This document shows positions 6,048 through 59,441 of a stretch of DNA of 64,000 nucleotides, in pieces. The position numbers and the translations under genes are program-made. The notes beneath the pieces are model-generated. The model saw only the letters and a program-made list of their open reading frames with translations. It made no database searches and was not told where the DNA came from. This DNA comes from a virus. Each line of letters begins with the position of its first letter. Position 1 is the first letter of the stretch. The stretch lies in the IMG/VR virus record IMGVR_UViG_3300021442_000581, positions 6,218 through 70,217 of that record, one strand, 5' to 3'.

Positions 6048-7142
6048 ATGTCCAAAGACATACTGGCTTCAGAACTTGCTGATAGCCTAAATTCAAAATT
6101 CAAGGGCCAAAAGGTTGCATACTTTTTGGATGGTTCTCACGATTCACCAACAGATATTAAAGATTTTATTTCTACTGGTTCATCTATATTAGATTTAGCA
6201 ATATCAAATAAACCAAAGGGTGGAATTGCAGTTGGTAGGATTACAGAAATAAATGGATTAACTTCTACAGGTAAGTCACTCTTAGGTGCTCATATTTTAG
6301 CTGAGACGCAAAAGAGAGATGGAGTTGCAGTTTATATCGATACTGAAACATCAGTTAGTCGACAATTTTTAGAAGCAATTGGTTGTGATGTTGGAAATTT
6401 ATTATATCTTCATATTGAAACCGTAGAAGAAATATTTCAGGCGATTGAAGATATTATCTTAAAAATTAGAGAATCAAATAAAAACAAACATGTTACTATA
6501 CTTGTAGATAGTTTAGCCGCAGCTTCAACTAAAGTAGAAATGGAAGCTGATTATGAAAAAGATGGTTGGGCTACTTCTAAAGCAATTATTATTTCTAAAG
6601 CAATGCGTAAAATCACTCAAATGATAGGACGCAATAAAATTACATTGGTATTTACAAATCAACTTCGTCAAAAAATGGGAGTTATGTTTGGAGATCCTTA
6701 TACAACAAGTGGTGGTTTAGCACTGCCATTCCATTCGTCAACTAGAATTAGGTTGAAAAATATGGGACAGATAAAAGATAAGGACGGAAATACAATCGGT
6801 GTAAAGTGTAGAGCACAGGTTATAAAAAATAGAATCGGTCCTCCAATGAGAAATGCAGATTATGATATGTATTTTGATCGTGGAATTGATGATGAAGGTG
6901 GGTGGTTACAAGTTTTAAAAGATTTGGGTATAGCTACCAATAAAGGTGCTTGGTACACTATTGAGTTCAACGGTAAAGAAAAGAAATTCTTGTCTAAAGA
7001 TTTTGTAAGTCAACTTGAAGATAAAAAGTTTAAAGATTTTTTATATGAAAAGATATGTGAAAATAGCATTCTTGAATATGAAAATGAACGTGGAATTGAT
7101 GATGTTGAATTTACCGACGAAGTCATGAACGAAGATGCGTAG
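6048..7142 (+). CDS. recA: RecA/UvsX recombinase
   Basis: GRITEING.TSTGKS Walker A, YIDTE, LVDSLAA, FTNQLR, MFGDP.TTSGG. Confidence 0.93.
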   Translation: MSKDILASELADSLNSKFKGQKVAYFLDGSHDSPTDIKDFISTGSSILDLAISNKPKGGIAVGRITEINGLTSTGKSLLGAHILAETQKRDGVAVYIDTETSVSRQFLEAIGCDVGNLLYLHIETVEEIFQAIEDIILKIRESNKNKHVTILVDSLAAASTKVEMEADYEKDGWATSKAIIISKAMRKITQMIGRNKITLVFTNQLRQKMGVMFGDPYTTSGGLALPFHSSTRIRLKNMGQIKDKDGNTIGVKCRAQVIKNRIGPPMRNADYDMYFDRGIDDEGGWLQVLKDLGIATNKGAWYTIEFNGKEKKFLSKDFVSQLEDKKFKDFLYEKICENSILEYENERGIDDVEFTDEVMNEDA

Positions 7143-14330: not shown

Positions 14331-14403
14331 GGGGCTGTAGCTCATTTGGGAGAGCGCCGCACTTGCACTGCGGAGGTAGTAGGTTCGATCCCTATCAGCT
14401 CCA
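14331..14403 (+). tRNA. tRNA-Ala(UGC)
   Basis: GGGGCTG/CAGCTCC acceptor with G3:U70; anticodon arm CCGCA-CTTGCAC-TGCGG; GTTCGATCC. Confidence 0.95.
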
Positions 14404-14408
14404 CTATT

Positions 14409-14480
14409 GACCCCGTCGTCTAGTGGTTAGGACATCAGGTTTTCATCCTGGGAACAGCAGTTCGATTCTGCTCGGGGTTA
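14409..14480 (+). tRNA. tRNA-Glu(UUC)
   Basis: GACCCCG/CGGGGTT acceptor; TCAGG-TTTTCAT-CCTGG; GTTCGATTC. Confidence 0.93.
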
Positions 14481-14509
14481 CAAAAAAAGTTATAAAAAGT
14501 GAAAAAAAG

Positions 14510-50044: not shown

Positions 50045-50117
50045 GTACCGGTACCCGAGTGGCTAAGGGGACGGATTGCAACCCCGTTATTCGTCAGTTC
50101 GATTCTGACCCGGTACT
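50045..50117 (+). tRNA. tRNA-Cys(GCA)
   Basis: GTACCGG/CCGGTAC acceptor, U73 discriminator, loop TTGCAAC, GTTCGATTC. Confidence 0.9.
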
Positions 50118-50121
50118 CAAT

Positions 50122-50201
50122 GAGTGCGTAGCCCGATTTGGAAAGGGGGCGGACTGTAAATCCGTTTAACCATCAAGTAGGTTCGAATCCTACCGCACTC
50201 A
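50122..50201 (+). tRNA. tRNA-Tyr(GUA)
   Basis: GAGTGCG/CGCACTC acceptor; GCGGA-CTGTAAA-TCCGT; 11-nt variable region; GTTCGAATCC. Confidence 0.9.
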
Positions 50202-50202
50202 C

Positions 50203-56951: not shown

Positions 56952-58144
56952 AATATTCTCCCGAGTACTATGAAAAAATAGAACAGTATAAACGTGCTCA
57001 TACGGAGGGCATGTACACTCGAGGTAGTAGGGACCCAGCCGATAAAATTCCACGAAGAGTAGTTGCACCCGATATAACGATGGAAGGTGTAGGAATAATG
57101 CGGAATGCTAGCTATTTTGCTAACACTACTGTTATTACTCGCATGTTAGGTGGTGAAAGATTTATTAACAGTGTACTAGATTACGGTAGTGGAAAGCCAG
57201 TTCCACTTACGTTTACACCAGGTAAAGCTGGAGAGTATGACCCTTCACGAGCAGCTTCTGAGGGTAAGAAGACTCGAGACGATAAACATGTACAAGATTT
57301 TTTATATCCACAAAACCAACAGGATTTTATAGAGTATATCGGTGTTGGTAATAATTTCTATCAGTGGGATCCAGCAATACCAGGAATAGATGATCCTCTT
57401 CCACCAGGTGCACAGTGGGATCAAGTGTGGTGTTCGGATGTTCTAGAACATATACCAGAACAAGATGTGGATGCAGTACTTGATGATTTATTTGCTCGAG
57501 CTCGTATATCATTAGTGATATTGATTAGTGCTAGTCCAGGAAAGCAGATGTTTAGGGATGATGATTACGAATTCGACTATCAGGGAATGAGGGAAGAAGG
57601 GGAAGATTTATACAATATTCAACACGTTCCTGAATCGGATAGACAATCACTAAAAGCTGGTGATGATCTTCATTGTACGGTACGGGATGCTAAATGGTGG
57701 ATAGATAAGATAAATAAACAAGCAAGGGCAAGGAATTGGCAAGATGCAGACGGAAAGTTTTTAAGATGTTCTATTAAAACTGGTCCTGATCAAAAGGGAA
57801 CGACTTCAGTTCGAGAGACTAGATGGTTTGGAAAGAATCCTAAAGGACTAACACCGGATACTATGCCAGTGATACAGCGGCAAGGTCAGTGGTGGGAAGA
57901 TTTTGATAGGATACTGATTGAAAAGAAAGTATATGAGATGGCACGGTTTCCAACGTATCGATATGAACAGTGGCCGAAAACTCCTCCGAAAAGGGGTCAC
58001 GGCAATATGATATACTGGAAAAAGACTGATATGAAAAATCATCAAGCTGGTAAGGCAGCACAGCATAAACCCGGTTCTTGGGAATCATCACGAATAGATA
58101 AACCATCGAATAGAAAGAGGAATGCAGACGGTACAATAAAATGA
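56948..58144 (+). CDS. Class I SAM-dependent methyltransferase-like protein
   Basis: VLDYGSGK, WDPAIP, CSDVLEHIPE.D. Confidence 0.75.
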   Translation: MKYSPEYYEKIEQYKRAHTEGMYTRGSRDPADKIPRRVVAPDITMEGVGIMRNASYFANTTVITRMLGGERFINSVLDYGSGKPVPLTFTPGKAGEYDPSRAASEGKKTRDDKHVQDFLYPQNQQDFIEYIGVGNNFYQWDPAIPGIDDPLPPGAQWDQVWCSDVLEHIPEQDVDAVLDDLFARARISLVILISASPGKQMFRDDDYEFDYQGMREEGEDLYNIQHVPESDRQSLKAGDDLHCTVRDAKWWIDKINKQARARNWQDADGKFLRCSIKTGPDQKGTTSVRETRWFGKNPKGLTPDTMPVIQRQGQWWEDFDRILIEKKVYEMARFPTYRYEQWPKTPPKRGHGNMIYWKKTDMKNHQAGKAAQHKPGSWESSRIDKPSNRKRNADGTIK

Positions 58145-59025
58145 GATTTGCATTGAAAATACTAAAGTACTTTTTAATATCATTCTTTGTTCTATCAGCA
58201 GTAAGAGGACAGTATGCGGTAGGAGATACGATAGATAATTTCAGTTTGGAGATTTGTGAGAATGGAGAAGGTACATGGGAGTATCATCAAGATGGTGTAG
58301 GTAATGTTGTATGGATGAATCTCTTCACGTCATGGTGACCAAGCTGTCAAGCGGAGGCTCCGTTGTCTGAAAATATGTGGCAAAATTATCAAGACCTACC
58401 GGTAGTAGTAATGGGTGTAGGTAGTGATTGGAGTACTTACTCTTGTGAAGGATGGGTTAATGCATTTGGAATAACATATCCAATGTTAGATGATTACGCT
58501 TCAACGGTTTATTGGTTATTCGGTGATGGGTATATTCCGCATAACGTTATACTAGATCATCAAGGTGTTGTACTGTATTCACAATCAGGATTTAATTCAA
58601 GTGCTATTATAAGTGTCATTAACAGTGCATTAGATAATATAGATGCCGATAATGATGGTGTTTATAATGGTAATGATAACTGTCCAGATGATTACAATCC
58701 AGAACAAGAAGACGAGGACGGTGATAGTATCGGTGATGCGTGTGATCCATGTAATAGTTTAGTATTTACCGGTGGAGATTTAAATACCAATCTAACACTT
58801 GATATAGCTGACGTCTTACTGTTGGTCAATATACTAATAGACGGTGAAGGACCACAGTGTCAAGTAGAATCAGCTGATATGAATGCTGATGGATTAATAA
58901 ATGTTTTAGACGTTATAACAATGGTTCAACTAATATTGAACGGTACTGAGGAACAAGCATTGAGATATTTGGAAGAGAATTTTGATTACATCCCAATGAC
59001 AACGATCGAGTACGAACAACGATGA
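58141..59025 (+). CDS. Exported thioredoxin-fold (AhpC/TlpA-like) selenoprotein, UxxC, with TSP3 repeats and dockerin-like domain (UGA at 58336-58338)
   Basis: ORFs 58141-58338 and 58363-59025 are in the same frame; reads WMNLFTSW-(TGA)-PSCQAEAP; then ITYPMLDD, YIPHNVILD..G; DADNDG...DNCP..YNPEQ.D.DGD.IGDACD; GDLN......IAD...ADMNADG.INVLDV. Confidence 0.9.
58348..58365 (+). promoter_or_regulatory. Candidate bacterial SECIS hairpin
   Basis: CAA(G)CGGA-GGC-UCCGUUG; the apical G lies 18 nt after the UGA. Confidence 0.6.
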
Positions 59026-59087
59026 ACGGTCGCGAAATTTTTAACGGTCCGCGTTTCTCGTATATATCACCCAGAGGAGGGTAAAGC

Positions 59088-59441
59088 ATGAACACACGCT
59101 CTCGTAAAGATAAGCCGAGATTCCCAAATCTCACAGAGCAGGAACAAGCCTCGATTCACGCATTCAGCGAGATAACCGATGGTATAGATAAAATGATGAA
59201 CGATATGAAGGACACACGAGAGGCTCGCAAGGTCTCGAAGTACAATCGATACATCTCATGGCTTTGGGAGGTACCTATTAGTATTTTAATAACAGCGTTA
59301 CTCACGTTTACAATAATCACGTTAGCAGTGGCTACTTTACTGGTCAGCTCCGTAATATTCGTGTGCACGCTTACGGTAACCATAACCGCGTACGCCCTCG
59401 ACGAGTGTACACACAGCGTAAGGAAGATATGGAAAACTTAA
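59088..59441 (+). CDS. Membrane hypothetical protein
   Basis: GAGGAGG RBS; long C-terminal hydrophobic stretch. Confidence 0.6.
   Translation: MNTRSRKDKPRFPNLTEQEQASIHAFSEITDGIDKMMNDMKDTREARKVSKYNRYISWLWEVPISILITALLTFTIITLAVATLLVSSVIFVCTLTVTITAYALDECTHSVRKIWKT

Follow-up and report, generated by a model that had tools for sequence, protein, structure and literature searches.

The window analysed in this study is a stretch of 64,000 nucleotides from the IMG/VR virus record IMGVR_UViG_3300021442_000581 (positions 6,218 to 70,217 of that record). Near its end lies a gene predicted to encode an exported selenoprotein with a thioredoxin fold and a calcium-binding C-terminal part (Table 1). The gene was found as two open reading frames (ORFs), 58141..58338 and 58363..59025, which are in the same frame with one TGA between them, at 58336-58338. 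When this TGA was read as selenocysteine (Sec, U), a protein of 294 residues was obtained, with ...VVWMNLFTSW-U-PSCQAEAPLSE... around the recoded position. The two ORFs had been joined in this way by an earlier reading of the window made from its letters alone (the sequence-only reading), and the read-through frame through a single TGA was confirmed. The ATG start codon overlapped the TGA stop of an upstream methyltransferase-like gene (ATGA at 58141-58144).

To place this TGA in context, stop-codon usage was examined in the window. The selenoprotein gene was the single case in the 64 kb in which one TGA joined two + strand frames that each had 50 codons or more. TGA was the terminator of 24 of the 69 long + strand frames, and ARAGORN detected four ordinary tRNAs (Ala, Glu, Cys-GCA and Tyr) and no suppressor tRNA in the window. 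These results indicated that TGA is a normal stop here and that codon 66 is special. Genome-wide recoding of TGA was rejected on the basis of the stop-codon counts. The possibility of two separate proteins was also rejected; the TTG start of the downstream ORF is located inside conserved coding sequence, and this ORF by itself lacks a signal peptide. Consistent with this, homologues carried an in-frame TGA at the matching alignment position, flanked on either side by conserved protein sequence, instead of being encoded as two proteins.

The N-terminus of the predicted product, MRFALKILKYFLISFFVLSAVRG followed by Q, resembles a Sec-pathway signal peptide. The Gln directly after the predicted cleavage site was conserved among homologues and recalls the 'Q-rule' of Bacteroidota signal peptides. 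In Pfam searches, the N-terminal part matched AhpC-TSA (40.8 bits against a curated cut-off of 26, E = 2.5e-10, residues 27-146) and Redoxin (39.3 bits against 26.6, E = 6.9e-10). A search against solved structures matched the N-terminal domain with ResA, TlpA, CcmG and DsbE, and the N-terminal 165 residues alone gave ResA 4nmu as the top match (E = 2.2e-11). The ResA segment ...NFWGTWCKPCEKEMP... stood in column register with ...NLFTSW[U]PSCQAEAP..., with the query IP opposite the ResA LP. This column-for-column alignment indicated that the TGA occupies the position of the attacking Cys of the CxxC motif. The interpretation of W-U-P-S-C as the counterpart of the WCxxC motif of TlpA-like redoxins, proposed from the sequence alone, was thus borne out by the alignment with ResA, by both Pfam families and by the Foldseek matches described below.

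An AlphaFold2 model was built from 72 homologues, with a mean predicted local distance difference test score (pLDDT) of 84.4. The model placed residue 66 at the N-terminus of a helix (residues 67-81) and predicted an N-terminal helix (residues 2-19) with low pLDDT. A Foldseek search with this model ranked ResA, DsbE and CcmG first (target TM-score 0.83-0.87), followed by the surface-exposed pneumococcal Etrx; BCP peroxiredoxins appeared no higher than rank 39. The peroxiredoxin (Prx) motif PxxxTxxC (as cited in PMC13188914) was not matched, since the segment V-W-M-N-L-F-T-S-W-U has Thr at -3 and no Pro at -7. The missing Pro, together with ResA, DsbE and CcmG as best structural matches, does not favour peroxide detoxification as a peroxiredoxin, one of the roles that had been offered for the protein. 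Two extra invariant cysteines, Cys39 and Cys102, were also found in the selenoprotein.

The C-terminal part carried the two modules that the sequence-only reading had named, a thrombospondin type-3 (TSP3) repeat and a dockerin-like domain. Residues 166-205 matched the solved type-3 repeats of thrombospondin-2 (chain 2rhp) with E = 2.9e-15. The Pfam TSP_3 score was under its cut-off of 25, both in the window copy (16.2 bits) and across the copies scored (16.2-21.1 bits). The D/N/C columns of the repeat (D-x-D-x-D-G-x-x-D-x-x-D-N-C-P) were invariant in 72 homologues, and calcium binding is predicted. Dockerin_1 (PF00404), a duplicated calcium-binding loop-helix, was matched over residues 212-263 with 25.9 bits against a cut-off of 22.9.

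Table 1. Features of the predicted selenoprotein gene, in window positions.
Feature	Position	Strand	Remark
Whole predicted selenoprotein gene	58141..59025	+	294 codons including the Sec codon, then TGA stop
Predicted Sec-pathway signal peptide, residues 1-23	58141..58209	+	Cleavage between VRG and Q; read from sequence
ResA/TlpA-like thioredoxin-fold domain, residues 27-160	58219..58620	+	Pfam, ResA 4nmu, Foldseek
In-frame TGA, predicted selenocysteine codon U66	58336..58338	+	Aligned with first Cys of ResA CxxC
TGT, resolving Cys69 of U-P-S-C	58345..58347	+	Codon bases 1-2 invariant in the 37-sequence alignment
SECIS-like hairpin	58350..58364	+	Stem 58350-58355 / 58359-58364, loop GGC 58356-58358, 17 nt after TGA
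Thrombospondin type-3 calcium-binding repeat, residues 166-205	58636..58755	+	Thrombospondin-2 chain 2rhp
Dockerin type I-like domain, residues 212-263	58774..58929	+	Dockerin_1 match; dockerin chains 3ul4_B, 2y3n_B
True stop TGA of the gene	59023..59025	+	No type IX secretion system sorting domain between dockerin and stop

The conservation of the TGA was assessed among homologues. Of 885 candidates in the protein search, 142 were relatives; most of these were 200-300 residues long, started just past the TGA column and covered 52-75% of the query. DNA was fetched for 12 loci from viral contigs and for metagenome loci; two full-length loci from metagenome-assembled genomes (MAGs), one of Marinimicrobia and one of Fidelibacterota, were among the 80 loci kept. 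In 26 loci scanned for the active-site motif, TGA was present in all 20 that contained it. These 20 loci represented 17 distinct 72-nt segments with 39-66% protein identity. The motif search was negative in L099-L104, and the readings at the Sec column cover the other 20 loci. The part upstream of the TGA showed same-frame protein conservation in 19 other loci. We also scanned 201 genomes of the MAG's phylum, and 55 had a match at E <= 1e-20. Among the 66 listed matches that spanned residue 66 (counted by hand), 48 had an in-frame TGA, 17 had no stop and one had a TAA elsewhere. A motif search of 30 MAG loci returned TGA in 22, TGT in three (L199, L203 and L209) and spurious off-frame matches in two; L193, recovered with a looser motif, carried TGA. 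The search was negative in L207, L208, L210, L214 and L217. Judged from the sequences, the homologue set is a classical Sec/Cys pair, made up of TGA copies and of the three TGT copies.

The 14 full-length database relatives that were aligned all had W at the Sec column. This observation speaks for another reading of the UGA, in which it is translated as Trp by near-cognate decoding, as Trp or Gly under genetic code 4 or 25, or as Cys, and the hairpin described below merely stimulates read-through; that this hairpin matched no Rfam family points the same way. We consider such non-Sec decoding highly improbable. The fetched DNA gave TGA or TGT at the Sec column and TGG in none of the loci, and the W is therefore probably an artefact of code-4 gene calling on short contigs (the DNA of those 14 proteins was not among the fetched loci). 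TGA also ends 24 of the 69 long frames, including the selenoprotein gene itself and its upstream neighbour, the tRNA scan gave no suppressor, and the anticodon of the phage tRNA-Cys is GCA. Furthermore, W-x-x-C would destroy the redox motif, and SelD of the same MAGs likewise has an in-frame TGA.

A sequencing error as the source of the TGA is excluded, because the TGA was found in 20 of 20 homologue loci and in contigs of runs X4, X10 and X16. Fourteen marine DNA runs matched the stretch near-identically, three of which may be its source. Contigs of the independent DNA runs X4 and X10 covered the TGA codon with zero differences. A 207-nt contig of the metatranscriptomic library X16 (58170-58376) also spanned the TGA with zero differences. 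In RNA run X15, the flanks of the gene were covered and the TGA was not; neither X15 nor X16 demonstrates transcription. Independent assemblies thus show TGA, and not the TGC, TGT or TGG that would have contradicted the sequence-only reading. The junction with the upstream gene was bridged by an X10 contig, and the downstream junction by contigs of X4 and X10. Between 58323 and 58373, contig depth rose three- to six-fold through short contigs of relatives with about 3 differences per 39 nt. Across relatives, no other part of the gene was as conserved in its nucleotides as this segment, which holds the TGA and the hairpin, and the pile-up fits such nucleotide-level conservation.

A GC-rich hairpin at the distance of a selenocysteine insertion sequence (SECIS) had been noticed downstream of the TGA, and the comparative analysis supported it. 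The RNAalifold consensus of 37 distinct TGA sequences paired alignment columns 24-29 with columns 33-38 around a 3-nt loop, which lies 17 nt past the TGA. The string GGAGGCTCC, which takes in the last base of the codon preceding Glu and then GAG, GCT and CC, was nearly frozen in these sequences, synonymous sites included. Columns 28, 29, 33, 34 and 35 were invariant and columns 27, 30 and 31 were at least 90% conserved; the remaining third codon positions varied freely. The hairpin was predicted in 36 of the 37 TGA sequences and in none of the three Cys copies. The proportion of paired cells was 87.3%, compared with 74.2 +/- 1.6 in shuffles (0/500 as high), and the covariation score was 0.366, compared with 0.131 +/- 0.022 in shuffles (0/500) and with at most 0.098 when the partner was slid by 1-3 columns.

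Covariation was observed at individual pairs. Pair 26-36 was CG in 28 sequences, UA in five, UG in two, AU in one and another combination in one. Pair 25-37 occurred as six standard pair types with eight cells unpaired, and pair 24-38 as four standard pair types with six cells unpaired. In pair 26-36, a non-synonymous site is joined to the third position of a Pro codon, which is synonymous, and the codons at the two sites were coupled: GCG, ACG or TCG occurred with CCG, GTG with CCG or CCA, and CAG with CCT. The Cys copies kept Glu-Ala-Pro through ACT GAG GCA CCT, GAT GAA GCC CCA and CAA GAA GCA CCT, and none of them formed the hairpin. According to the available text of PMC13188914 (Fig. 2 legend), the bacterial SECIS (bSECIS) model has an apical loop of 3-9 nt with a G in its first two positions, an upper stem of 4-16 bp, a UGA-to-loop distance of 16-37 nt and a minimum free energy of at most -7.5 kcal/mol. 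The loop of 3 nt starting with GG, the stem of 6 bp and the spacing of 17 nt fitted this model.

A distant clade of TGA copies (L212, L213, L215, L216, L218 and L219) was also observed. These proteins have approximately 285-336 residues and the motif U-G-S-C-R-x-E-V-P, and their match to the query was confined to the thioredoxin domain. The TGA was kept, and the hairpin was perfect, with 6 or 7 bp and a loop of GGU or GAU.

The machinery for Sec decoding was searched for in MAGs and in phage records. Among MAGs that carry the selenoprotein family, selB scored over the curated cut-off in two of the two tested; selA and selD were over their cut-offs in four of four MAGs tested, and tRNA-Sec in one of two. 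Of five selD matches over the cut-off, four had an in-frame TGA of their own. The TGA-bearing (selenoprotein-form) SelD genes were located at G001:C103:11649-12575, G002:C34:25008-25934, G194:C15:11540-12463 and G166:C10:39506-40429. A second selD copy in G166 had no stop and lay in an open frame of 736 residues, possibly a fusion. Together with the absence of hits in the phage fragments described next, the presence of this machinery in family-bearing MAGs suggested that the phages appear to depend on their host for Sec decoding; all phage records searched are fragments.

Several observations weigh against the reading of the gene as a working selenoprotein gene of a phage. No selA, selB or selD was found in the phage record (G000, a fragment), and tRNA-Sec gave only sub-threshold matches there, the better one being the phage tRNA-Tyr. 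Neither tRNA-Sec nor selD exceeded the cut-offs in five related phage fragments (24-70% complete). The 23-nt core of the window hairpin has a free energy of -5.9 kcal/mol, above the -7.5 kcal/mol limit of the bSECIS model, whose folding length may differ; the hairpin cores of relatives ranged from -3.3 to -12.3 kcal/mol. The single-sequence fold of 65 nt was no better than shuffles (z = 0.17), so the hairpin evidence is purely comparative. The shuffle control ignores the kinship of the sequences, and the natural control provided by the three Cys copies therefore weighs more. The phage copies L010 and L011 had a stem of only 4 bp, and the TGA copy L205 had no hairpin. An Rfam scan of 58000-59200 with E up to 10 gave three chance-level matches, to unrelated families only. 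The contig from the X16 RNA library may stem from carried-over DNA. Finally, we infer both the selenium insertion at U66, from the DNA, and the identity of the host.

Two side observations relate to these points. The phage tRNA-Tyr scored 38.6 bits against the tRNA-Sec model (threshold 47), owing to its long variable arm. The MAG copy L205 (1762-1833, - strand) has GCC GAA GCT CCC after the TGA and may be decaying or use a different SECIS.

The lack of Sec machinery in the phage fragment and its five relatives, together with the modest energy of the window hairpin, would be expected if the TGA of the phage copy simply terminates translation, the gene being a decaying remnant of a host selenoprotein or encoding a 65-residue peptide, for example in a host unable to decode Sec. 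We regard such termination as quite improbable. Ten distinct phage copies keep the open frame, the TGA and the hairpin, and in these ten copies the invariant catalytic and calcium-binding residues are kept on both sides of the TGA. No frameshift and no second stop were seen. Phage and MAG copies are mixed in one clade (described below), and the bacteria that bear the family possess selA, selB and selD.

The record that contains the window is 70,217 bp long and has a CheckV completeness of 19%. The phage origin that had been assumed for the window was upheld by its genes and by related viral loci. Nearly all long ORFs of the window were on one strand. Its genes included a DnaB-like helicase, ribonucleotide reductase (RNR), CobS- and CobT-like genes, glycosyltransferases and a T4-type PolB with 26% identity to cyanophage gp43. 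In eight distinct viral loci (L003-L006, L009-L011 and L013), the selenoprotein gene adjoined homologues of other window genes, at differing genome positions. For example, the gene was located between PolB and an RNR 78% identical to the window RNR in L011/L012, and the CobS neighbour in L003 had 59% identity to the window CobS. Among GenBank phages, no protein relative was found beyond two weak thioredoxin-domain matches.

That the gene is instead host DNA, or a chimeric assembly, misclassed as viral was judged extremely improbable. In its favour, the contig is metagenomic with low CheckV completeness, no virion structural gene was found among ten large window ORFs tested, and the closest cellular homologues occur in Marinimicrobia MAGs. 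Against it stand the nearly uniform strand of the long ORFs, the four tRNAs, the T4-type PolB, the DnaB-like helicase, RNR and CobS/CobT, as well as the eight viral loci that pair the gene with homologues of window genes. The independent contigs that bridge the gene's junctions (X10 upstream; X4 and X10 downstream) likewise argue against a chimera.

The thioredoxin domain was also analysed in a quick maximum-likelihood tree with 41 rows and a distant TGA clade as root, in which ten phage, five MAG and five metagenome copies were mixed in one clade with an SH-aLRT support of 93; other MAG copies fell outside. The Por_Secre_tail domain (PF18962), a sorting domain of the type IX secretion system (T9SS), was over its cut-off in seven of ten distinct phage copies; the other three, namely L004, L010 and the window copy, gave no match. 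A short conserved tail takes its place in L004 and in the window copy. The surface tethering that the sequence-only reading had attributed to the protein is thus not supported for the window copy, which differs in this from the seven phage copies with the sorting domain and is more likely periplasmic. Judged by the T9SS signal, by the tree and by the cellular homologues nearest to the protein, the host is most probably a member of Marinimicrobia/Fidelibacterota.

In the MAGs, a gene for a DUF6029 protein was located directly upstream of the selenoprotein gene in five of six neighbourhoods, and in four of those five a Cys-type redoxin of about 165 residues preceded the DUF6029 gene. The conserved row has, in this order, a protein of about 430 residues, the Cys-type redoxin, the DUF6029 protein (580-700 residues) and the Sec gene, and was noted at L221:2855-9457, L222:7394-13999, L223:3572-8956, L224:6742-12142 and L220:7508-11454; L220 has two tandem copies of the Sec gene. 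This host gene row may form a redox relay across the envelope. DUF6029 was not detected in five phage records, and the control genomes were likewise negative. Of the row, the phage loci carry the selenoenzyme gene only.

Collectively, we consider it very probable that a large marine phage, distantly T4-like, has here an accessory gene derived from a host, and that this gene encodes an exported ResA/TlpA-like oxidoreductase with Sec as the attacking residue (U66-P-S-C69). In the mechanism we propose, the infected cell, most probably of Marinimicrobia/Fidelibacterota, would supply SelA, SelB, SelD and tRNA-Sec. Host SelB with Sec-tRNA would bind the hairpin 17 nt past UGA66, and the ribosome would receive Sec from SelB in place of terminating. 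The product would then cross the inner membrane by means of its signal peptide. The window copy would probably stay in the periplasm, where the TSP3 repeat and the dockerin domain may act as a calcium-dependent anchor to a partner. There, the enzyme would reduce or reshuffle disulfides of envelope proteins, as ResA, TlpA or pneumococcal Etrx do. Candidate gains for the phage are upkeep of host envelope functions, protection from oxidative stress and remodelling of receptor disulfides. Sec insertion, export, location, substrate and benefit are all predictions.

With less assurance, though still leaning in its favour, we suggest that the gene represents the first bacteriophage selenoprotein family, belonging to a marine phage lineage of about 190 kb (by CheckV). 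In this proposal, the in-frame SECIS would be matched to the SelB of Marinimicrobia, the phage would draw on host selenium, and use of the gene would be confined to Sec-decoding hosts, with copies lacking or carrying the T9SS domain directed to the periplasm or to the surface. Two observations on genome size relate to this lineage. From the CheckV figure for the present record (70 kb, 19% complete), a genome of about 370 kb would follow. For the related records G202-G206 (131 kb, 70% complete; 94 kb, 51%; 83 kb, 41%), the corresponding size is about 185-200 kb. The two estimates conflict, and the genome size of the phage is therefore uncertain.

Selenoproteins are known from all three domains of life and from a few animal viruses, and eukaryotic viruses encode selenoproteins such as the glutathione peroxidase (GPx) of molluscum contagiosum virus. 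This GPx resembles the present protein in being a virus-encoded selenoprotein for which the host Sec machinery is needed. The selenoproteins of eukaryotic viruses have a SECIS in the 3'-untranslated region and a GPx fold, whereas a bacterial-type in-frame SECIS, a TlpA-like fold and a bacteriophage are involved here. Huge phages have predicted tRNA-Sec genes, and no selenoprotein gene is reported in the available text of PMC10747093. They share with the present case a hint at phage use of selenocysteine and differ from it in that a selenoprotein gene is present here, while phage tRNA-Sec was not found in the fragments. In the Global Ocean Sampling (GOS) data, the metalloprotein and selenoprotein families examined had no or very few viral sequences, except RNR II and two copper proteins, as far as the available part of PMC9402790 states.

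The sequence-only reading had called a surface-tethered selenium redox enzyme in a phage highly unusual. Our literature search found no bacteriophage selenoprotein and no study of Marinimicrobia selenoproteins, with published supplementary tables outside its coverage; in a 2026 review, the words 'dockerin', 'phage' and 'virus' are absent. The kind of protein is known, in contrast, from marine bacteria: UxxC selenoproteins with AhpC-TSA/Redoxin folds ('Prx-like 1/3' and 'thiol-disulfide isomerase-like, cd02966') have been described in marine metagenomes in the available parts of PMC2398784 (Table 2) and PMC13188914. These marine Prx-like selenoproteins share with the present family the Pfam families, the UxxC motif, the marine origin and a bacterial-type SECIS right after the UGA. 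The window gene differs in being carried by a phage and fused to TSP3 and dockerin modules, and most copies also have the T9SS domain. The bacterial members may already be counted in the published GOS/Sargasso 'Prx-like' subfamily tables. Within the literature searched, both the carriage by a phage and the fusion of these domains are new, and the selenoprotein kind itself is not.

Among Cys enzymes, ResA, TlpA and CcmG (DsbE) share the fold, the residue-for-residue motif W-C-x-x-C-x-x-E-x-P, the cis-Pro position and the export signal with the present protein, which differs from them in Sec for the first Cys, in the extra Cys39 and Cys102 and in the calcium-binding C-terminal module. Genes for cytochrome c maturation were not seen near the selenoprotein gene. 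Pneumococcal Etrx1 and Etrx2 have been linked to methionine sulfoxide reductase, and no gene for such a reductase was seen near the selenoprotein gene. Etrx1/Etrx2 (PDB 4hqs, 4hqz and 2yp6) also have a TlpA-like fold outside the cytoplasm and serve as a functional analogue, an envelope reductase; they differ in being Cys enzymes anchored as lipoproteins.

Through the need of such a gene for host SelB, the fitness of the phage would become tied to a trait that is rare among hosts and to the selenium supply of the ocean interior. The joint requirement for Sec decoding and T9SS cargo signals offers a new marker for host prediction. Most of the 120 listed database homologues were either truncated at the TGA or given Trp in its place, which means that viral and MAG gene catalogues hide this selenoprotein family; its misannotation appears to be systematic. 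As a TlpA-like enzyme that is secreted, contains Sec and has a calcium-dependent module for anchoring, the protein would represent an unexplored type of extracytoplasmic redox catalyst.

Other features of the window were also noted. The next gene downstream of the selenoprotein gene (59088-59441) encodes a 117-residue protein whose C-terminal half is hydrophobic; it gave a sub-threshold match to Bac_rhodopsin (19.7 bits against 24.6), which most likely reflects a transmembrane segment only. The tRNA genes occur in two pairs, Ala(TGC) with Glu(TTC) at 14331-14481 and Cys(GCA) with Tyr(GTA) at 50045-50202. From 21909 to 41918 there is a long run of genes on the same strand, in which the four ORFs scanned encode two glycosyltransferases, a protein with a phosphoheptose-isomerase domain and a GtrB-like protein. 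This region looks like a large island for the modification of cell-surface polysaccharides.

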